A stretch of DNA of 64,000 bases from sequence record OR776998. One strand, written 5' to 3'. Of the stretch, positions 3,090-49,522 are shown one piece after another. Made by a program: the position numbers and the translations under genes. The stretch is from Escherichia phage YX22. The notes beneath the pieces were generated by a model, which saw only the letters and a list, made by a program, of their open reading frames with translations, was not told the origin of the DNA and did not search any database. Within the stretch, counting starts at the first letter, position 1; every line of letters starts with the position of its first letter.

Positions 3090-3815
3090 TTATACCGCAT
3101 TTCGCGGATTAGAATCAATCGCCTTCCCACCAGATAGTGGAACCAGCTGTTGGAACTTGAAGGTCACTGTCGTCACCAGCTGAGGTACAGCTGCGTCTAC
3201 GTCCACCAGTACGTTGTCCAAAGCAGTCGGGCGGGCTTCCTCCAGCACGAGAGTGAGGCCAATCGGTCGGTTGAGGTTATCCAGCAATTCAATGGTAATG
3301 TCCTTGCTGACAGGCAAATCCTTGCCGACGTTGCTGGTAATCCATTGGTGGATCTGTAACCATGATTTCCAGTCCTCGTCTATAACGAAAGTAAATACGA
3401 CGGGATCATAGGTTAAACGCTCTGAAGGTATAGAAACCAACACGTCACCAGGAGACGGACCATCGATGCCTTCGGAGTACACCCCTGGTATACTGAAGTC
3501 GTGGATGTTACGGGTTAGGAGTACAAGGTCTCCGATAGTCAGACGCCACTTATCGGACGCCGCGAAATTAGGGTTTTCGTTCTTAAATTGTACGTTGGAC
3601 ATAATAGCACCTTTGCTGTGGAGATATTTTGTGACCCTGATGCGCGGGATCAGTAGATTGTTGTTGGCATGCTCGATGCTCTTGTTTACGAGCTGTCGCA
3701 TCTTTGTCACGCCAATAATTTCTGTTTCCGAACTCTGGAACCCAGAAGTGCGCACTGTACCTGTGACGTTGTCGGCCAGCGTTCCCACTTGTAACAAGGG
3801 TATGCTGGACATCAT
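3090..3815 (-). CDS. hypothetical (possibly structural) protein; start uncertain
   Basis: The minus frame looks coding up to about 3815. Alternative starts lie at 3701 and 3602 (MSNVQFKNE). The ORF-track start at 3905 would overlap the plus-strand gene. Confidence 0.5.
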   Translation of the reverse strand: MMSSIPLLQVGTLADNVTGTVRTSGFQSSETEIIGVTKMRQLVNKSIEHANNNLLIPRIRVTKYLHSKGAIMSNVQFKNENPNFAASDKWRLTIGDLVLLTRNIHDFSIPGVYSEGIDGPSPGDVLVSIPSERLTYDPVVFTFVIDEDWKSWLQIHQWITSNVGKDLPVSKDITIELLDNLNRPIGLTLVLEEARPTALDNVLVDVDAAVPQLVTTVTFKFQQLVPLSGGKAIDSNPRNAV

Positions 3816-3873
3816 CGTGCAAGAGTTCCAGCCCTTCCAGAAGCTCGTACCTTTAGGTTGCTTTGATGAGAAC

Positions 3874-4281
3874 ATGAGCACCCTCAAGCCATACTGGAAG
3901 ACCACAATTCCTCTCCTGCGGCATGGCGATGAAGGGAAGATTCCATACCTATCAGCAAGTATTTATTACTCTCAGAATAACAGCATCATTATCACTTTTA
4001 ATCCATCATTCCATGCCAAGCTGAAGCAACACATGGTTGGGCGACTGGATACAACATCAGATATAATCGTGACGTTCAAGATCATGAATGACTCAGATAA
4101 ACCAGTACGAATCGCAACTCAGGGTGTGTTCGTTAACAACGACGCGGTTGGAAATGGGATGAGTATCTTTGAAGTTAACCCAGGGGGAACGATCTTGATC
4201 AGACTGAGTAATGTGGGTGTGAACTCCCTGCTGTTGGATGGCATCGAACCAGTGGGAGTTCTTCCGGCGCGGGAGCACTGA
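3874..4281 (+). CDS. hypothetical protein on the opposite strand
   Basis: Only the C-terminal 135 aa of plus ORF 3466..4281 looks protein-like. No credible minus ORF covers 3906-4281. Its stop abuts the stop of the 4282 gene. Confidence 0.45.
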   Translation: MSTLKPYWKTTIPLLRHGDEGKIPYLSASIYYSQNNSIIITFNPSFHAKLKQHMVGRLDTTSDIIVTFKIMNDSDKPVRIATQGVFVNNDAVGNGMSIFEVNPGGTILIRLSNVGVNSLLLDGIEPVGVLPAREH

Positions 4282-5688: not shown

Positions 5689-6033
5689 TCACAGCGCCCC
5701 AAGATTGCCGATTACGTACAGGGAGCACAGAGGAGTGCCTGACGAACGCGGTTCGATCGTCATCCCGCTCAGGCGGATCAGTTCCAGTAAGCCGTCAGTG
5801 GTCTGATACGCGCGTGTCGAACCGTTCGGTCGATATAGCTCCAGCTCAGTTCGCCCTTCCTTTATTGCATTTCGAATGCGAGTGAACACGCTGTGGTCGC
5901 CGAACTTCTGTTTCAGAAGATCCAGCTTGGTGACCAGGCGGCGCGTTTTGCGTGGCTTGCGCTCACTCGGCTTTTCGAATTTGACGATGTGGGGGATCTC
6001 CACGGATTTGTTCAGTTTGGTGTCTGCTGCCAT
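5689..6033 (-). CDS. hypothetical protein
   Basis: 114-aa ORF with an AGAGGA SD. Confidence 0.6.
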   Translation of the reverse strand: MAADTKLNKSVEIPHIVKFEKPSERKPRKTRRLVTKLDLLKQKFGDHSVFTRIRNAIKEGRTELELYRPNGSTRAYQTTDGLLELIRLSGMTIEPRSSGTPLCSLYVIGNLGAL

Positions 6034-43695: not shown

Positions 43696-43708
43696 GCCAA
43701 CGGGAATC

Positions 43709-43726
43709 AAAACGCTCGCGCGCGTT
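43709..43726. terminator. stem-loop at the divergence point
   Basis: AAACGC-tcgcgc-GCGTTT. A TTTTG run follows on the minus strand. Confidence 0.3.
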
Positions 43727-43951
43727 TAATTTATTCGAATATAACTCGCAAGGGGGCTGACGCCCTCGCTCGTAACACCGCCCTATGCGGGCAGCACCAT
43801 TCCACAGCCATGGAGGCTGCTTCTCGTTGTTCGTTAACACTCACAACTCGAAGGGCACTGCGTTAGGATACAGTTTCTTGATGTTGTAGAAAAGTAGTTT
43901 TTGCCTATTAATAATCACTGTCATTGTTTTATTGGCCATTCCTGTGTTTAT

Positions 43952-43977
43952 ATTCAATAAACATACTCCCAATATAA
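43952..43977 (+). promoter_or_regulatory. TTCAAT-N14-TATAAT promoter-like element
   Basis: TTCAATAAACATACTCCCAATATAAT, 38 nt before the 44015 ATG. Confidence 0.6.
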
Positions 43978-44014
43978 TAACGGAGACATTTAATCAATCC
44001 AGTGAGGCTCCGGA

Positions 44015-44584
44015 ATGCACATTAACACAGCAATCATGAAACACATTATTCCTTTGTTAGCAAAATACGAAGGGGAACGCGCCACGAAAATCCCTTTTGG
44101 AACAATCACCGATGAAGTGAAACGCCTGACAGGTAAAAGTATCAATTTCCGTCGCGTTATTGAATCTGCGTTAGAGTTGGCCCGTTCTGATTTACGAAAT
44201 CCAACATTTTCATTTAATATTGACATAACTTCTTCACTTCGACAAGAAATGGAAGAATCATCACAAGCGCGGCGCAATCGTTTCCGTCATTTATATGTTC
44301 GTAACGAATTCTCTGAAGGTCGTGTTGGTATGAAACTGGAGTCTATTCGTTCTGACATTTGCTTCACTGTCAACTATGTTTTAGAGCCAGAAAGCGGGCG
44401 CATTTATTTTGGTGCGATTATCGGTTTCTATGGGAACTCTATTAATGGTTGGGCAGAACGTGTTGGATTAAAAGAAACCCAGAACACTCATTCCACACCT
44501 TCTACCCATTATATGACGCATGAAGCTGCTGGCGAATATGTTTACCTTCTGCGTCGTATTGTGAAGTTAGAAGTGTTAAAATAA
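44015..44584 (+). CDS. hypothetical protein, first gene of the RNA/tRNA unit
   Basis: 189-aa ORF. No motif recognised. Confidence 0.6.
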   Translation: MHINTAIMKHIIPLLAKYEGERATKIPFGTITDEVKRLTGKSINFRRVIESALELARSDLRNPTFSFNIDITSSLRQEMEESSQARRNRFRHLYVRNEFSEGRVGMKLESIRSDICFTVNYVLEPESGRIYFGAIIGFYGNSINGWAERVGLKETQNTHSTPSTHYMTHEAAGEYVYLLRRIVKLEVLK

Positions 44585-44591
44585 CGCTTTA

Positions 44592-44615
44592 TTCAATAAA
44601 GAATTGCAGTAAAGT
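44592..44615 (+). promoter_or_regulatory. weak TTCAAT-N12-TAAAGT element
   Basis: The box is perfect, but the spacing and the -10 element are off-consensus. Confidence 0.25.
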
Positions 44616-44641
44616 TAGTTGCATGGAAGGGAGGGAACACT

Positions 44642-44788
44642 ATGTTTTACATGATGTTACTCCTCATCCTCCTGATCGGGATTACCTTTACTCTCCTGGG
44701 TCTACCCGATCAGTCTGGTAAACAGACGCCCACTTCGGCGCATCCGGTTTTGAGTGAAGGTTCGTCCGCACTGCTGTGGGCAGTGTAG
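44642..44788 (+). CDS. small membrane peptide (48 aa)
   Basis: Below the ORF-track cutoff. Strong GGGAGGG SD. MFYMMLLLILLIGITFTLLGL is a TM helix. Confidence 0.5.
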   Translation: MFYMMLLLILLIGITFTLLGLPDQSGKQTPTSAHPVLSEGSSALLWAV

Positions 44789-44989
44789 CTCAAAGAGGAG
44801 AGGATTTTTCAAATTAGCTGGGCTGTAGTAAAGTATTAAACACGAGGCGAATAGCGCGGTGGTAGTAGGGCTGGAACCCGAAACCAGGAAAGCCCAGTCT
44901 CAGGGCACCGTGACGAATAGAGGCGTAATATCAACCTCGCTGGTGTCGGTGGACGCACTGACCGTCGGAGAACGAAACCCCCTGTTGTA

Positions 44990-45079
44990 GCGTGATTAGC
45001 TCAGATGCTTGAGAGCGCCCCGTTGGCGAGTCGACACCAACATATAGGGGAGGACGGATCTGCCAGGTTCCATCACGCC
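44990..45079 (+). ncRNA. tRNA-like module (aberrant anticodon and T arms)
   Basis: Perfect 7-bp acceptor GCGTGAT/ATCACGC and a D arm TA-GCTC..GAGC. The anticodon arm is replaced by a 9-bp arm with a 10-nt loop. Confidence 0.35.
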
Positions 45080-45765
45080 GACAACATTATGAGTCTTCGT
45101 AGAGGGTTCATAATGTTGCGTCAAAGGGCAACACAGGCTCCTGTTGGTAGAATTAACTTGATTCATAGTTCCTGCTGATCTTCCCGGATTCGAAGGAGCA
45201 CCAACAGGCGAGGCCGGATGCGTAAGTTCCGGCAAAACGATGGTGGCACCCTCGCCAACAAAATAAAAGGTTTTATCAATAACGGGTTACAAAGTATAGT
45301 TAACCCACTGAACGGCAAGCTGTTTGAGTCCTGGTCACTCATAGCGTTGTGAACTAAGACAGGTACGTTTAGGACTCAAACAGGTTTTCGTTGTGCGTGA
45401 CTTTGCGGGTTTTTAGAAACTGACCAAGCAAATAAATGCTAATGATTCCGAAGTTCTGATGGCGGCGTAATAGCCTATAAGTCAGCGGGGTATTCCAGTT
45501 CCCTGTAACAGAATCTGGCGCATCGCGGCCCTGAGATGTGATTAATAAGTCAGGGCATACAATGACAATTCATTCACATGATAACTTGTCAGCAATCTGT
45601 GAAATTGTTTGTAGGCATACGAACAAGAGGTAATTCGAGGGAGAATCGGCTCCTACCGTGTAACAGACCAAGTGACGTACCACTAAACCGTCCCGGGCGG
45701 TCGAAATGTGGGGAGATGAGAGTGGTCCCCTGAAGTTATCAGTTGAATGAATTGTTAAATAAAAT

Positions 45766-45891
45766 GCCGTTACATCTGACTGTCCAAAGGGGATAATCTC
45801 CTGAGTAAGCAGAGGTGGGTTGCCTAAGTCAGATGGGATGTAAGGTCAACGCTGGCCGAACATTTGGGTTCGACTCCCTAAAACGGCACCA
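45766..45891 (+). ncRNA. 126-nt tRNA-like RNA ending in ACCA
   Basis: GCCGTT/AACGGC acceptor, GGGTTCGACTCCC T arm, and an encoded A-CCA. The core is expanded by a 9-bp helix (45773-81 with 45827-35). Confidence 0.4.
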
Positions 45892-46804
45892 CATCTTTGA
45901 GGATATTCTCACGAGTATCTTGAAAGATGTGAGCGAAGTCTTGCCATCAGCCCTGATCCCTGGCAGGTGAAGGGCACACAAATCGAAGTGCCTTGACAAT
46001 TTATCTTAAACCCAAAGGTTGATCTACAAATTGGGCGGCCAATCCGGTGGACGATAACAGCATATTGGGCCATACTGTTGAGTCAGGGCACTTCGATTTG
46101 TGAACTTGAGAGAGCATTGGGTGAAATAGACCATGCCTTGCAGATTGCGATGCCTACACATTCCGGACACTGGTGGGCACCAAGAAGAACTCAGTAGCAG
46201 ACGAGCCATCAGGGTTAGCTACCCGGCGCGGCGAGGACTGGGAGGCCGAACTAAGGGGAAACCCGAGACAGGCGTAGTATTCTCAAGTTCACAAAATGAA
46301 GAGCATTTAAAGAGTTCGATTCTCTTTCAGGCCATTCGTGGTGTGATGTGAGTCATGAATGTTCTTCATCTTTGGGTGATTTTATGTTGCCGGGCTATCA
46401 ACCCATGCTTGCTGGAGCAACCAGCGGCTCTGAATCAACCAGCCAGCCTCGTTTGGTCCGAGCGTTAGAGGACAAGTTGCTTCTACATAGAAGCTGCGAG
46501 TTTTAACATTTGGTTGCAACTTTGATGGCTCTGGATTTTATAAACCATGTCTATGGGTGACGCGGGATCTTTAGTACCAGAGCTATCAAAGTTGTGTCCA
46601 ACCCGATCTTGCAAGCCCGTATCCCTGTATGGTTAAGACTTGCAAGTGGAAAGCCCTGGAAAAATAAACGCCTGTGGCGAGGCTATGGTGCAAGCCAAAG
46701 ACCCACAGAAGCGCATGCCGTGAGGCGCACAAACAGGCATGCATGAACTGATCATGCACAAACGGGATAAAGGGTTGACAGTCCTTGGTTGGTCACAATA
46801 ATTT

Positions 46805-46881
46805 GGTCCTGTAGCTCAGTCGGTTAGAGCAGTGAACTCATAATTCATTGGTCGTTGGTTCAAATCCAACCAGGATCACCA
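46805..46881 (+). tRNA. tRNA with CAU anticodon (Met by anticodon; ileX-like, so possibly Ile2 reading AUA)
   Basis: Full cloverleaf: GGTCCTG/CAGGATC acceptor, GCTC..GAGC D arm, GTGAA-CTCATAA-TTCAT, GTTGG-TTCAAAT-CCAAC, encoded CCA. The variable loop TTGGTCG matches E. coli ileX. Confidence 0.9.
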
Positions 46882-47134
46882 TGTTAAGGGGTGTGAAACA
46901 TAACACTCCGACAAACACAGTAAGCGTTGCAGCCAGCTGTGTATAAAATGGGGATGACTCCGCATCGGAAACGATGCCCCAACTTCCAGAAATGGTCGGG
47001 CGCAAAGCCTGTAAAGTTCCAGGAGATCGAACCAGAAGGCACTGGTCGCCAGTTAACCAATCGGCGCTGAGAAGCGCGGGGAGTTGGGCTACGGCAGATC
47101 AAATGCTCAATCGGGTGTGAAGCCCGTCCAAATT

Positions 47135-47223
47135 GGAAGGTTGCCCGAGAGGTTTAAGGGACTCGACTGCTAATCGAGTGGGGCTTTTAGCCCCCGAAGG
47201 TTCGAATCCTTCACCTTCCGCCA
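47135..47223 (+). tRNA. tRNA-Ser (GCU)
   Basis: Class II cloverleaf: GGAAGGT/ACCTTCC, CTCGA-CTGCTAA-TCGAG, long variable arm GGGGC-tttta-GCCCC, GAAGG-TTCGAAT-CCTTC, G-CCA. Confidence 0.9.
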
Positions 47224-47442
47224 AATTACGGGCGTGACTTCCTGAAGAGTTAGAAGATGTGCATGTCGACTCTCTCTCGTAATCGGGGTGTTTAGGAAGT
47301 TAAGAAAATCGCGGCGAGGATAGTGAAATGCAAATAGCTTTCTCTACGTCGACGACTTCAGGTTCGACTCCTGACGCGCTCTCCCATAGGGTAGTACCAG
47401 TGCAAGCGTGTAGTCTTTCAACCCATCCCATCGATGTGGTGT

Positions 47443-47471
47443 AGCCGGATATCCTATCCGGCTTTCTTTTT
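47443..47471 (+). terminator. rho-independent terminator ending the RNA/tRNA unit
   Basis: AGCCGGATA-tcc-TATCCGGCT followed by TTCTTTTT. Confidence 0.75.
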
Positions 47472-47528
47472 ATCCCTGTCTTATTATCTTCTTATCGACC
47501 CAAGCATGTTCTCCTTTATCGTAGTTTG

Positions 47529-47555
47529 TTCAATGATACAAAGGGGGTTTAAAAT
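47529..47555 (+). promoter_or_regulatory. TTCAAT-N15-TAAAAT promoter-like element
   Basis: Upstream of the 47597 gene. It overlaps the GGGGGTT/AACCCCC hairpin. Confidence 0.4.
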
Positions 47556-47596
47556 TTAACCGTTAACCCCCCTATCATAGATTTGAGGATACACTA

Positions 47597-48259
47597 ATGC
47601 GTAATGTTTCTATCTGGGAATTGAACGAAGTGATTTCCCATGACACCCCTCCAATTGTCAGACTCTTCCAATACAAGGGTGTCAAGCGCACTCTGAATGA
47701 GTTCCTGTCGCCTGTTTACGTCTACCGTGATGGCGGGTTCTTCCGCCGCGATAAAAACATCCCGAACCTTGGTATGACGTTTGATTTGAGTATCAAAGGC
47801 CAGGTTGTATTGATGGGTTATGGTAGCCTAGAACAATCTGAGAAAGGCCAGGGCGCTCCACTTATGGTCTTCGGTTCGTTTGAACAAGCCGTGCACTGGC
47901 TGATCAGAAACGGATATGATTTCTATGGCGAAGAAAGCGCCAATTGGCGTCGTCGCAAGGTCAAGTCTGTTAATCTGGTGGATTTGAATCTGATGTACCA
48001 GGCCATGGCTCGCGAGTACGAAAAGAATCTCGTCAAGCCTGTCGCCCAGGAGAACAATAACAATGTTGTTAACGACGCAACTGAGTCTTCTCATCATGAC
48101 GTGAACATCGTTCCAGCCTGTGAAACGAAAGCGCCGACACCGCCCACTCCTCCGGCCAGTCGTGTTCTGAATGATCAGGGCGCTCCGGTAAAACAAAAGG
48201 TCAAGAAGCCGACTTTCATGGAAAACATGATGAAGTTCCTTCGTCTGTTCAAGAAATAA
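47597..48259 (+). CDS. hypothetical protein
   Basis: 220-aa ORF with a GAGGA SD. Confidence 0.65.
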   Translation: MRNVSIWELNEVISHDTPPIVRLFQYKGVKRTLNEFLSPVYVYRDGGFFRRDKNIPNLGMTFDLSIKGQVVLMGYGSLEQSEKGQGAPLMVFGSFEQAVHWLIRNGYDFYGEESANWRRRKVKSVNLVDLNLMYQAMAREYEKNLVKPVAQENNNNVVNDATESSHHDVNIVPACETKAPTPPTPPASRVLNDQGAPVKQKVKKPTFMENMMKFLRLFKK

Positions 48260-48328: not shown

Positions 48329-49522
48329 ATGAACAAGACCATCTTCGATATCCTTTCCCTCGACCGCAACCTGGTCCATTGGGAAGATTATCTCTACAAG
48401 CACACCCCGTGCGAACTTGTCGTCAACCCAGAAACCAACCAGCAGGTCTGGTTCAAGCGTGAAGATTATTTTGCGCCGCTGTCTAACTATGCCAACGCCA
48501 AGCAGGGCATCAATGGCAGCAAACTCCGCCAGGCCATCTGGTTGATGGTTGAGCACCTCAAGGCCGGAGGCTCCCCTGACATCATCCATGGTACTGTCGT
48601 TGGTAGTCCGCAGTCCCCTATGGCGACGGCAGTCTCTCGGCACTTCGGCGGCAAGACAACCACTGTACTCGGAGCGACCAAACCCACCACCTGTATGAAC
48701 CACGACATGGTGGCAATGTCAGCCTGGTTTGGTAGTGAGTTCAACTTCGTCGGCTCGGGTTACAACAGCACGATCCAGCCGCGCTGTAAGAAGTTGATCG
48801 AACAACAGAATCCAAAGGCGTATTATCTGGAATATGGTATCACCCTCGACCATACAGCGCATTCTCCTGAGCGCATCGCTGGCTTCCATATGCTGGGTGG
48901 CGAGCAGGTTGCCAACATCCCTGACCATATTACCGATCTGATTATCCCAGCCGGATCGTGCAACTCTTGCACAAGTATCCTGACCGGGCTGGCAATGCAT
49001 CCGAAGCCTAATCTGAAGCGTGTGTATCTGATTGGCATCGGTCCGAACCGCCTGGACTTTATCGAGAGCCGTCTGCGCATCATCGGCAAACATGCCAATC
49101 TGCCGCACATTGTCGACTTCACCCGTCGCTATCACGACAACCCAGACTATGTACACGGCAAGAAGGAGCTTCAGCATGCCTCTAAGAGCGTTTCGCTGGC
49201 TGGCCTCCTGAGTGGTATCAGACATAAGGAAGAGCCAGAGGTCGTGCTTCCTCGCTTTGAGGTACACCATTGGGATCTTCATACCACTAATTGGGTTCGT
49301 TACAATGACCTGATGGAATATCAGTGGGGTGATATTGAGTTGCACCCTCGCTATGAAGGCAAGGTCATGACCTGGATCCAGCAGAACAAGCCAGAGGTGC
49401 TCAATGAGAACACTCTGTTCTGGATTGTGGGTAGCAAGCCATACATCGATCCGATGAAGGCAGCATGCCCTGAGCTGGCTATCCCTGAAACAGTTCCTGT
49501 AAACGAATTCACCCCTTCCTGA
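48329..49522 (+). CDS. PLP-dependent enzyme, ACC deaminase / D-cysteine desulfhydrase family (fold type II)
   Basis: FKREDY...NGSKLRQ (PLP lysine), IPAGSCNSCTSILTG (phosphate loop) and HPRYEGKVM, compared with the family motifs KRED..GGNKxRKL, GSxxG and DPVYEGK. Confidence 0.7.
   Translation: MNKTIFDILSLDRNLVHWEDYLYKHTPCELVVNPETNQQVWFKREDYFAPLSNYANAKQGINGSKLRQAIWLMVEHLKAGGSPDIIHGTVVGSPQSPMATAVSRHFGGKTTTVLGATKPTTCMNHDMVAMSAWFGSEFNFVGSGYNSTIQPRCKKLIEQQNPKAYYLEYGITLDHTAHSPERIAGFHMLGGEQVANIPDHITDLIIPAGSCNSCTSILTGLAMHPKPNLKRVYLIGIGPNRLDFIESRLRIIGKHANLPHIVDFTRRYHDNPDYVHGKKELQHASKSVSLAGLLSGIRHKEEPEVVLPRFEVHHWDLHTTNWVRYNDLMEYQWGDIELHPRYEGKVMTWIQQNKPEVLNENTLFWIVGSKPYIDPMKAACPELAIPETVPVNEFTPS

Follow-up and report, generated by a model that had tools for sequence, protein, structure and literature searches.

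An RNA island upstream of the tRNA genes of phage YX22

Escherichia phage YX22 (sequence record OR776998; the window analyzed is a stretch of 64,000 nucleotides) carries, at positions 44,789 to 47,471, a long segment that begins after a conserved open reading frame (ORF) of 48 aa and runs into the tRNA genes. As a preliminary description of this DNA had claimed, 44789-46804 holds no credible ORF, the longest on either strand having 79 aa. This ORF-free stretch is a phage stable-RNA island, that is, a cluster of structured RNAs (Table 1), and its functional centre is, judging from the sequence, a ~175-nt 'tag template' derived from transfer-messenger RNA (tmRNA), which spans 45384-45556 and has its own promoter at 45273-45300. 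The preliminary description had recognized a helix-dense RNA here and had overlooked the tmRNA-like tag gene that is the main content of the region; of the three readings that it offered, a 'processed multi-domain non-coding RNA' came closest, in that there is a conserved and covarying array of RNA modules, although this array is not a single unit.

The 3.1 kb around this segment are 96% identical to Escherichia phages PC3 and PH4, and the region is collinear with genomes of Kuttervirus, Agtrevirus and Taipeivirus; the relatives are Ackermannviridae (Vi1/CBA120-like) instead of the rV5/phi92-type phages that had been implied. The gap between the 48-aa ORF and tRNA-Met measures about 1.6-2.9 kb in all relatives examined, and 44789-46804 is conserved across Ackermannviridae.

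A tag frame in tmRNA-type context is followed by a covarying pseudoknot

The core contains the sequence AAUAAAU GCU AAU GAU UCC GAA GUU CUG AUG GCG GCG UAA UAG, which reads as the peptide ANDSEVLMAA followed by two stops. An in-frame UAG lies eight codons upstream, and the frame has no in-frame AUG, GUG or UUG start. A tag frame was found at 126 of 133 pattern matches and had exactly 10 codons in every case; together, the 126 frames encode 18 different peptides of the form AN[DE]xxx..[AV]A (among them ANDDVVLMAA, ANEEMYLAVA, ANDEQFLAVA, ANDDLMLMAA and ANDNYALAAA), with synonymous variation at third positions. AUA occupies -6 to -4 relative to the resume codon in most lineages, and the A at -4 is retained even in the variants. 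Because the frame bears a signature of selection on the peptide, it is probably translated, and because it combines the lack of a start codon with a tmRNA-type resume context, its translation should be trans-translation.

Covariation was scored on an alignment of 38 core sequences, none of them more than 94% identical. The score of the H-type pseudoknot together with the helix 5 analogue around the end of the frame (Table 1) was reached by none of 500 shuffles, and when the pairing partners were slid, pairing fell from 90% to 35-57% of cells. No upstream pseudoknot comparable to tmRNA pseudoknot 1 (PK1) was supported in this 38-sequence alignment, the candidate hairpin being 78% paired and free of double changes.

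A permissive Rfam search returned weak matches of permuted and alphaproteobacterial tmRNA models at 45327-45522; these cover the coding part only and score 10.5-24 bits, below the gathering scores of 47-50. The best matches of the core, still weak, are to the coding parts of two-piece tmRNA families. ARAGORN (option -m) at default settings called no tmRNA in the window or in 134 further loci, and at relaxed thresholds it picked up the 'resume consensus' and the tag. Relaxed settings yield many false 'tmRNAp' calls and were used only where the ends match independent features.

In its layout the element resembles bacterial tmRNA (ssrA, RF00023), with which it shares the A-rich context with AUA at -6 to -4, a GCN resume codon, a 10-codon AN[DE]...AA tag with its stop or stops, a helix round the end of the frame with an H-type pseudoknot downstream and, in Ackermannviridae, also a downstream T arm and CCA. 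The E. coli tag ANDENYALAA and the YX22 tag ANDSEVLMAA are both followed by two stops. Unlike RF00023 tmRNA, the phage element has no recognizable PK1, a single pseudoknot, no P2 helix and no G3:U70, most of its copies lack a tRNA-like domain, and its 5' arm is antisense to the host's own tmRNA. In a global alignment with E. coli ssrA, a 381-nt relative scored within the shuffle range (z about 2.4). The predicted core would work like the mRNA-like domain of a tmRNA yet stands outside the canonical tmRNAs.

An arm of the core is complementary to the host tmRNA

The most invariant part of the core is the arm 5' of the spacer, which is complementary to E. coli tmRNA in collinear blocks (Table 1). 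The predicted duplex of arm and host tmRNA has 37 pairs and an energy of -45.7 kcal/mol, a value matched by one of 400 query shuffles and by none of 200 host shuffles. Of the 38 diverse cores, 33 hit one and the same stretch of host tmRNA, nt 54/56-105. Block 1 amounts to 9-12 contiguous bp in nearly every lineage, its ends being extended by lineage-specific sequence: the lambdoid form, UAGUUUUCGUC, makes 11 perfect bp with host nt 96-106, the GJ1 form, GUAGUUUUC, pairs with nt 99-107, and T1-like phages have UAGUUUUCGU. Substitutions within GCGACUUUGCGG are C-to-U or A-to-G, such that wobble keeps the pairing, and breaks occur at block ends only. Pairing of the arm with the tag region of the phage itself is much weaker (-18 against -35 kcal/mol). 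The arm ends 12 nt upstream of the phage resume codon, and PK1 of E. coli tmRNA ends 11 nt upstream of the host one. The complementarity to one defined site on the host tmRNA is thus extended, conserved and non-random, as in a trans-acting antisense RNA.

The core recurs in unrelated enterobacterial phages

When the 2 kb were used in a sensitive BLAST search, only 45384-45562 matched unannotated gaps in unrelated phages, including Shigella phage DS8, Pollock (N4-like), phiEcoM-GJ1 and Klebsiella KP13-27. A pattern made from the 3' part of the core was found in at least 120 viral contigs, many of them lambdoid prophages, where the copies sit just 3' of the late-promoter terminator. The core is present in at least six unrelated enterobacterial phage groups (Ackermannviridae, T1-like, N4-like, GJ1-like, lambdoid and P1-like) and in 656 of 5426 complete E. 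coli genomes (~12%). Of the 704 matching places in these genomes 554 are on plasmids, those listed being about 80-136 kb in size; almost all listed places have no RefSeq annotation beneath them, and two coincide with a hypothetical protein. One example that was examined, E. coli plasmid p1540-3 (~116 kb; locus L255, 1490-1760), which we take to be P1-like, has a divergent copy with the tag ANDDLMMVAA and a stem 2 of GUCG/CGAC, located between dmt (dam methyltransferase gene) and tRNA-Asn/Thr. A scan of genome contigs with an 18-base pattern covered 596 Gb and gave mostly chance matches; among the 120 matches listed, five loci had the tag frame, all of them in Enterobacterales.

Often the core opens a tRNA operon, whose tRNA genes are Ser-GCU, Arg-UCU, Met-CAU, Gly or Asn. 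In the T1-like phages and in two further lineages (loci L116 and L122), invariant -35 and -10 boxes with a variable spacer place the RNA start at the first bases of the core. A tRNA-like domain is missing from most copies, and no CCA-ended domain lies near the core in P1-like elements, Pollock, several N4-like phages and SKML-39. Because the T1-like RNAs start at the core and the SKML-39, P1-like and several N4-like copies are without a CCA-ended domain, we regard the core as an autonomous unit. In phiEcoM-GJ1 (locus L007, about 1798 and 2150), the 5' acceptor strand GGACGAG of a 95-nt 'intron-containing' tRNA-Arg is duplicated ~110 nt past the tag core, and acceptor strands duplicated in a similar way are found around the core in Ackermannviridae and lambdoid phages. 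These duplications hint that the core may have spread by insertion into tRNA-like genes.

A CCA-ended tRNA-like module and a 5' stem-loop flank the core in Ackermannviridae

The 13-bp helix that had been described at 45320-32/45371-83 is confirmed: two sequence types differ by compensatory changes at its inner pairs (AGUCCU/AGGACU versus GGCAU/GUGCU). The apical motif of this 5' stem-loop, CGAUGUGA..ACC.AGACAGG, is conserved in relatives and has the form CGUUGUGA...GACAGG in the window. At a relaxed threshold, ARAGORN read 45326-52 as the 5' tRNA domain of a tmRNA.

On the 3' side of the core, the slot that precedes tRNA-like module E is, depending on the relative, empty or filled by a 200-nt hairpin, a 100-nt T-arm module or lambdoid-type modules. 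The insertion at 45557-45765 of the window is absent from vB_CECAV_050 and SeKF_19, in which module E directly follows the core, and PhaxI, CBA120, SJ2 and fGh-Ecl02 have other modules in its place. Module E (45766-45891) bears out the earlier observation of a module with tRNA-type acceptor, T arm and CCA end that does not fold as a normal cloverleaf. It is 92-96% identical across genera, with a discriminator base that varies among relatives. Module E and the tRNA-like relics farther upstream each lack a D arm or an anticodon arm, the canonical cloverleaf being confined to tRNA-Met and tRNA-Ser; a 'tRNA-Leu' that ARAGORN calls at the 80% threshold has two unpaired positions and one G-U in the 7-position acceptor stem. 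The same architecture occurs with other acceptors, i.e. UCCAGGA/UCCUGGA in an N4-like phage (locus L042) and GUUCCC/GGGAAC in LIMEstone1 and SJ2; the E-type module lies at a core-free locus in LIMEstone1 and is present as a second copy downstream of tRNA-Met in SJ2. These CCA-ended paralogues without a D arm, at 3785-3976 in LIMEstone1 (L013) and about 3795-3990 in SJ2 (L011), are joined by one in PhaxI (L004, about 5877-5997), the acceptors among the three being GUUCCC/GGGAAC and GUCUGUU/AACGGAC; the window has one copy only. The hairpin noted before at 45890-45931 is present and is invariant in the few homologues.

The T arm and ACCA at 45866-45891 have two candidate 5' strands, one distal (45319-25) and one proximal (45766-71). 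Position 3:70 would be U3-G70 in the distal and C3-G70 in the proximal pairing, so that the alanine identity pair G3:U70 is absent. The gene order of two-piece (permuted) tmRNAs was not found, as the CCA-ended module lies downstream of the frame in the window and the T1-like RNAs have no acceptor strand. Several candidate arrangements were rejected: a permuted tmRNA called by ARAGORN in the window at the 70% threshold has implausible tRNA domains; an upstream acceptor strand in T1-like phages, UGUGGUG, lies in the promoter spacer, and its variation is not matched by the downstream strand; the tRNA-like candidate with G3:U70 seen in DS8-like phages is an ordinary tRNA plus a chance upstream match; pairing of AACGGCA in the leader with the proximal strand is not kept in the second sequence type; and the full-length duplexes given by RNAduplex for the whole core with module E are meaningless.

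Table 1. RNA elements and signals of the island and the adjoining tRNA unit (window coordinates; host positions refer to E. coli tmRNA)
Feature	Position	Strand	Description
tRNA-like relic	44990-45078	+	7-bp acceptor GCGUGAU/AUCACGC, D-arm-like GCUC/GAGC, aberrant long 'anticodon' arm, no T loop, no CCA; from sequence and alignment fold
17-bp hairpin	45082-45119	+	Alignment fold; invariant in all relatives, hence no covariation
tRNA-like relic	45207-45256	+	GGCGAGG...CCUCGCC-A; relatives including SJ2 keep a T arm, GUGUGGUUCGAUUCCACAC, deleted in the window
Sigma70-type promoter	45273-45300	+	TTATCA-16-TATAGT; consensus scan; serves the tmRNA-like RNA
5' stem-loop	45319-45383	+	13-bp helix 45320-32/45371-83
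Antisense arm	45384-45425	+	Most invariant core part; complementary to host nt 57-105 in four to five collinear blocks
Block GGUUUUCGUUGU	45383-94	+	Host nt 94-105, tag codons 2-6
Block GUGACU	45397-402	+	Host nt 86-91, A86 to resume codon
Block UUGCGG	45403-08	+	Host nt 75-80, 3' half of PK1
Block UUUUUA	45410-15	+	Host nt 68-73, 3' half of PK1
Block CUGACC	45420-25	+	Host nt 57-62, 5' side of PK1
Spacer and tag frame	45426-45473	+	12-nt A-rich spacer, AUA at -6..-4; resume codon GCU 45438-40; frame 45438-45467; stops TAA TAG 45468-73
Helix 5 analogue, around frame end	45456-59/45482-85	+	CUGA/UCAG, alternating with CUGG/CCAG, 18 to 17
H-type pseudoknot, stem 1	45486-90/45501-05	+	98% paired, 3 doubly changed pairs; UA/CG 20:18, GC/AU 26:9
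H-type pseudoknot, stem 2	45495-98/45515-18	+	100% paired, 2 doubly changed pairs; GC/AU 25:13, AU/GC 29:9
GGCGCA	45517-22	+	Invariant
Terminal hairpin	45529-34/45550-55	+	Invariant loop UGUGAUUAAUAA on at least 5 different stem sequences
Insertion	45557-45765	+	Self-contained long hairpin, lineage-variable, ~200 nt
tRNA-like module E	45766-45891	+	Acceptor GCCGUU/AACGGC, no D arm, long arm CAUCUGACU/AGUCAGAUG, variable-arm hairpin GGUCA/UGGCC, T arm with UUCGACU loop, A73, CCA 45889-91
Trailer hairpin	45892-45931	+	Directly after the CCA end; no U-run
Bracket-helix module	45977-46102	+	21 bp, 45977-97/46082-102; restricted to Ackermannviridae
Bracket helix UGAAGAGCAUU/GAAUGUUCUUCA	46297-46368	+	Encloses T-arm-like hairpin AAAGAG-UUCGAUU-CUCUUU; read from sequence
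Hairpin module	46517-46594	+	18-bp stem
Leader	46595-46802	+	About 80-97% identity across relatives, 92.5% to Limestonevirus; ends in the tRNA promoter
Promoter	46775-46802	+	Near-consensus TTGACA-16-AATAAT; consensus scan; directly before tRNA-Met
tRNA-Met(CAU)	46805-46881	+	ARAGORN, Rfam
tRNA-Ser(GCU)	47135-47223	+	ARAGORN, Rfam
Intrinsic terminator	47443-47471	+	9-bp stem with 5 GC pairs (47443-47463) and T-run

Further modules and transcription units of the region

Upstream of the core promoter, the relic at 44990-45078 was called by neither ARAGORN nor Rfam, and a 'tRNA-Ala' is annotated in SeKF_19 at about the position of the relic at 45207-45256 (an estimate by BLAST coordinates). Downstream of module E, both long helices that had been singled out on first inspection carry several compensatory changes, i.e. 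45977-97/46082-102 in the SeKF_19/SJ2 type and 46517-34/46577-94 in SKML-39, CBA120 and the relative at locus L106. The module at 46297-46368 resembles the GGUAAGAGCAUU...AGUGCUCUUUCC brackets of lambdoid late-leader regions, which flank the core and other inserts; the likeness comes from a by-eye comparison that carries no statistic. In lambdoid late-leader regions (loci L027, L016, L131, L019 and L026), a long bracket helix, ACAGGUAAGAGCAUU ... CAGUGCUCUUUCCGU, recurs around the core and other inserts, some of them with T-arm-like hairpins, and a terminal tRNA-like module GUUGUGGUG...CACCACAAC that covaries to GUUGUGCUG...CAGCACAAC comes after it; phage lambda has such a bracket downstream of tR'. 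The long bracket helices may be RNase III-type processing sites. GOLLD, ROOL, YrlA and other Rfam families gave no match at E values up to 10 in 43700-47700.

The core promoter at 45273-45300 is kept in every Ackermannviridae relative examined, including the Limestonevirus Dickeya phage LIMEstone1. Because of this internal promoter and the one at 46775-46802, the region comprises several transcription units instead of the single promoter-to-terminator unit that was first envisaged, and the promoter-like elements then placed at 43952 and 44592 are absent from the output of our consensus promoter scan. At curated thresholds, ARAGORN and Rfam give tRNA-Met and tRNA-Ser only, in line with the first canonical tRNA having been put at 46805, and the strong terminator proposed at 47443-47471 was recovered as well. 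In relatives, tRNAs for Trp, Asn, Tyr or Ile sit between Met and Ser, and these are missing from the window; at 46882-47134 it has no counterpart of the ~420 bp that bear tRNA-Trp, tRNA-Asn and tRNA-Tyr in vB_CECAV_050 (L001, 3700-4130). The remaining sequence at 46912-47134 is non-coding and 93-98% conserved. After tRNA-Ser, a degenerate tRNA-like element at 47313-47381 has the T arm UCAGG-UUCGACU-CCUGA and no CCA, and ARAGORN calls it only at the 80% threshold with an undefined anticodon; PhaxI and SeKF_19 have a 'tRNA-OTHER' annotated immediately 3' of tRNA-Ser.

Among relatives, the region is a recombination mosaic. Homing endonuclease genes interrupt it in PhaxI, CBA120 and PMBT18; those of the HNH type in PhaxI (L004, 4124-4765) and CBA120 (L012, 3371-3784) lie directly upstream of tRNA-Met and overlap its start, and they are absent from the window. 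In Enterobacter phage fGh-Ecl02 (Kuttervirus; L002, 2560-2720), the 5' half of the tRNA-like module is swapped for modules otherwise found in lambdoid and DS8-like phages, a replacement that directly documents the exchange of RNA modules among unrelated phage families.

Annotators have left the gap empty in some relatives and have given it inconsistent small ORFs on either strand in others. GenBank entries of relatives (vB_CECAV_050, locus L001, 2121-3560; locus L003, 1564-3609) list 5-11 'hypothetical proteins' of 30-130 aa on both strands, which overlap the tag core and the covarying helices; these annotated small ORFs across the RNA region are most likely spurious calls. Of the seven longest small ORFs tested in the window (five in 44789-46804, one at 46884-47102), none matched a PHROG family except for one 25-residue partial match to a 43-aa family. 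The neighbouring ORFs of 189, 48 and 220 aa, tested as SmpB-like or other translation factors, were ruled out as such, having no Pfam match and matching only PHROGs of unknown function. A 397-aa ORF farther downstream (48329-49522) has a below-threshold match to PF00291, a family of pyridoxal phosphate (PLP)-dependent enzymes (30 bits versus a cut-off of 35), and is labelled threonine dehydratase in relatives.

A model for docking on the host tmRNA and its alternatives

We tentatively propose that the phage RNA pairs with the host tmRNA and supplies a tag template of its own in place of the host's. Because most copies have no tRNA-like domain, such a domain must come from elsewhere, and we favour docking because the arm would tether the phage RNA specifically to the only RNA of the cell that possesses such a domain. 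According to the model, the arm would anneal first to the single-stranded linker and tag codons of host tmRNA and then invade PK1. The pairing would span the 3' half of PK1, A86, the resume codon and tag codons 2-6, and would hide the host template. The intermolecular helix would take the place of PK1, with the phage resume codon 12 nt away, close to the native spacing of 11 nt. Subsequently, host Ala-tmRNA and SmpB would carry the phage frame to stalled ribosomes, and the rescued proteins would receive the phage tag. The hybrid would in effect be a two-piece tmRNA to which the host contributes the acceptor part and the phage the coding part, and the phage would rewrite the output of ribosome rescue while encoding neither a tRNA-like domain nor SmpB. 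The flanking modules, i.e. the 5' hairpin, module E, the bracket-helix modules and the tRNA relics, would be co-resident stable RNAs or processing structures. We infer all steps beyond the complementarity itself. Natural two-piece tmRNAs demonstrate that covalent closure of the coding part onto the tRNA-like domain is dispensable, and in E. coli tmRNA A86 and the upstream AUA are frame determinants. Extended to the other lineages, the model would describe a portable 'coding-domain-only' tmRNA module, present in at least six enterobacterial lineages, that may anneal to host tmRNA, mask its resume codon and tag, and substitute the phage frame; we regard this wider version, too, as plausible and no more certain than the model itself.

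Several points weigh against docking. In a sliding scan over 10 kb of the window, two unrelated coding segments (about -49 kcal/mol) outrank the duplex site, which comes third among the 1667 segments scored by energy. Host PK1 must be invaded, and the net cofolding energy of -15 kcal/mol leaves the stability of PK1 out of account. The pairing of UUGCGG with CCGCAA, one part of the complementarity, may be left over from a homologous PK1 5' strand, and a variant group (loci L022, L077 and L080) retains only blocks 1 and 3 relative to the E. coli sequence. Exchanging one hydrophobic degron for another would bring no evident selective benefit. Finally, because module E follows the core in Ackermannviridae and ARAGORN (85% threshold) calls a 381-nt tmRNA in SeKF_19, a self-contained RNA is possible.

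Such an RNA would be a one-piece phage tmRNA extending over 45319-45891, an alternative that we consider somewhat unlikely. RNase P would cut before G45319, GCUGUUU (45319-25) and AAACGGC (45881-87) would form the acceptor beside the T arm and ACCA, and the aminoacylated RNA would act like ssrA with host SmpB, the antisense arm only silencing the host competitor. A conserved promoter and a short leader lie directly upstream of the proposed 5' end, each of the 12 Ackermannviridae loci with module E has the 7-bp distal acceptor pairing, with T arm and CCA conserved, and the gene would measure 381 nt in insertion-free relatives as compared with 363 nt for E. coli ssrA. With the threshold lowered to 85%, ARAGORN predicts a standard tmRNA that has these ends in SeKF_19 and CBA120, and at 70% it does so in vB_CECAV_050; the minimum-free-energy fold of vB_CECAV_050 makes the distal stem unaided, and fGh-Ecl02 retains the distal strand and the 3' half of module E without the proximal strand. 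However, the distal strand is accepted as an acceptor only at the 85% threshold or lower and in relatives only, the RNA fails to reach either the ARAGORN default or the Rfam gathering score, and 3:70 is U-G instead of the G3:U70 needed for alanylation. Moreover, GCUGUUU is also the outer part of the far more stable 13-bp local hairpin with its covarying inner pairs, a 7-mer match that allows G-U is expected by chance in ~15% of cases within about 150 nt, and E-type modules close on a covarying proximal strand (GCCGUU/AACGGC, GUUCCC/GGGAAC and UCCAGGA/UCCUGGA). An intact core without such a domain is also found in SKML-39 and five other phage groups.

The complementarity data apply equally to a pure anti-tmRNA, that is, an antisense inhibitor or sponge of trans-translation tagging in which the tag-like frame would be an untranslated structural relic or mimic, and an RNA of the mycobacteriophage DS6A type consisting only of a tRNA-like domain has been reported to inhibit tmRNA (PMC4131195), which gives phage interference with tmRNA a precedent. 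We judge this reading unlikely: a relic would not hold 10 sense codons, a stop, an AN[DE] start and an [AV]A end across 18 peptides with third-position variation, nor would it retain the AUA at -6 to -4 in most lineages, and the downstream pseudoknot and hairpin covary although antisense action has no need of them. Decay of a tRNA/tmRNA array that has no present function and is retained by linkage to tRNA genes, as the preliminary description had considered, does account for the relics at 44990-45078 and 45207-45256, which differ in completeness among relatives, and for the missing Trp, Asn and Tyr tRNAs, and it agrees with the mosaic nature of the region and the insertions and homing endonucleases of relatives. 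For the rest of the region it is improbable, given a core that is conserved with covariation across unrelated phage families and has its own conserved promoter, a module E that is 92-96% identical across genera, and bracket helices with compensatory changes. The same description had also raised tRNA mimics or decoys that would absorb host anticodon nucleases or other tRNA-targeting defences. The locus does lie among phage tRNA genes and has several modules shaped like acceptor and T arms, and phage tRNAs have been proposed to counter such defences (PMC10264068). Nevertheless, this idea found no support and is in our view very improbable, as the tRNA-like modules have no anticodon stem-loops, which are the known targets, what is conserved is the tag frame, the pseudoknot and the arm complementary to tmRNA and not a mimic of an anticodon loop, and nothing tested indicates nuclease recognition.

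Relation to known RNAs

The two-piece tmRNAs of alpha- and betaproteobacteria and cyanobacteria (RF01849-51, RF04321) likewise have a separate coding RNA that is base-paired to an acceptor part, an association that is proposed in the phage case. In those families both pieces come from one gene in the same genome, and the coding piece gives the 5' acceptor strand; in contrast, the proposed partner of the phage element is the host's intact one-piece tmRNA, and pairing would take place at PK1 and the tag region. Two-piece gene forms have been described (PMC11915505), phage tmRNAs are named only from mycobacteriophages (Bxz1 group) and Bacillus phage G (PMC4131195), a later survey collected 79 phage tmRNA sequences by ARAGORN and BLAST with a CCA-equivalent end required (PMC11915505), and the DS6A-type RNA with only a tRNA-like domain is presented as a partial tmRNA acting on the host system (PMC4131195, PMC11915505). 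Among the phages named in the text of these two sources, the full list of the 79 aside, there is no coliphage. The Bxz1-group, phage G and DS6A RNAs are canonical or consist of the tRNA-like domain only, and they are detected by ARAGORN, whereas the core described here is the opposite fragment, a coding domain without a tRNA-like domain.

AgvB and AsxR, encoded in lambdoid prophages of E. coli O157, are base-pairing 'anti-sRNAs' that act as sponges for small RNAs (sRNAs) dependent on Hfq. They resemble the core in being phage RNAs from lambdoid prophage non-coding regions that pair with a host non-coding RNA, and they differ in that they bring no replacement functional domain. 'Species 1 and 2' of the T4 tRNA cluster, GOLLD and ROOL are structured RNAs co-located and co-transcribed with phage tRNA genes; unlike the core, none of them encodes a tag frame, and there is no match to them by sequence or model. 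A literature search covering tmRNA, mimics and antisense RNAs of phages, lambdoid phages and Ackermannviridae found no tmRNA-like or anti-tmRNA element described in coliphages, this coverage being incomplete and a prior description possible.

Implications

Ribosome rescue by tmRNA is regarded as a host-owned, one-RNA system. An unannotated tag-template RNA in P1-like plasmids, lambdoid late-leader regions, T1-, N4- and Vi1-like phages and ~12% of complete E. coli genomes would be a widespread missing gene. If the docking mechanism were confirmed, the element would be categorically new: for the first time, a virus would be seen to reprogram trans-translation in trans, there would be natural proof that a separate molecule can supply the mRNA-like domain, and the element would offer a direct handle on the choice of the resume codon as well as a route to tagging rescued proteins at will. 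It may then also explain why phage growth depends on, or interferes with, ssrA, and 'ORF-free' gaps beside phage tRNA genes, which annotation pipelines fill with spurious small ORFs, would hold functional RNA genes. Taken together, the sequence comparisons suggest that many enterobacterial phages reprogram the ribosome rescue of their hosts.

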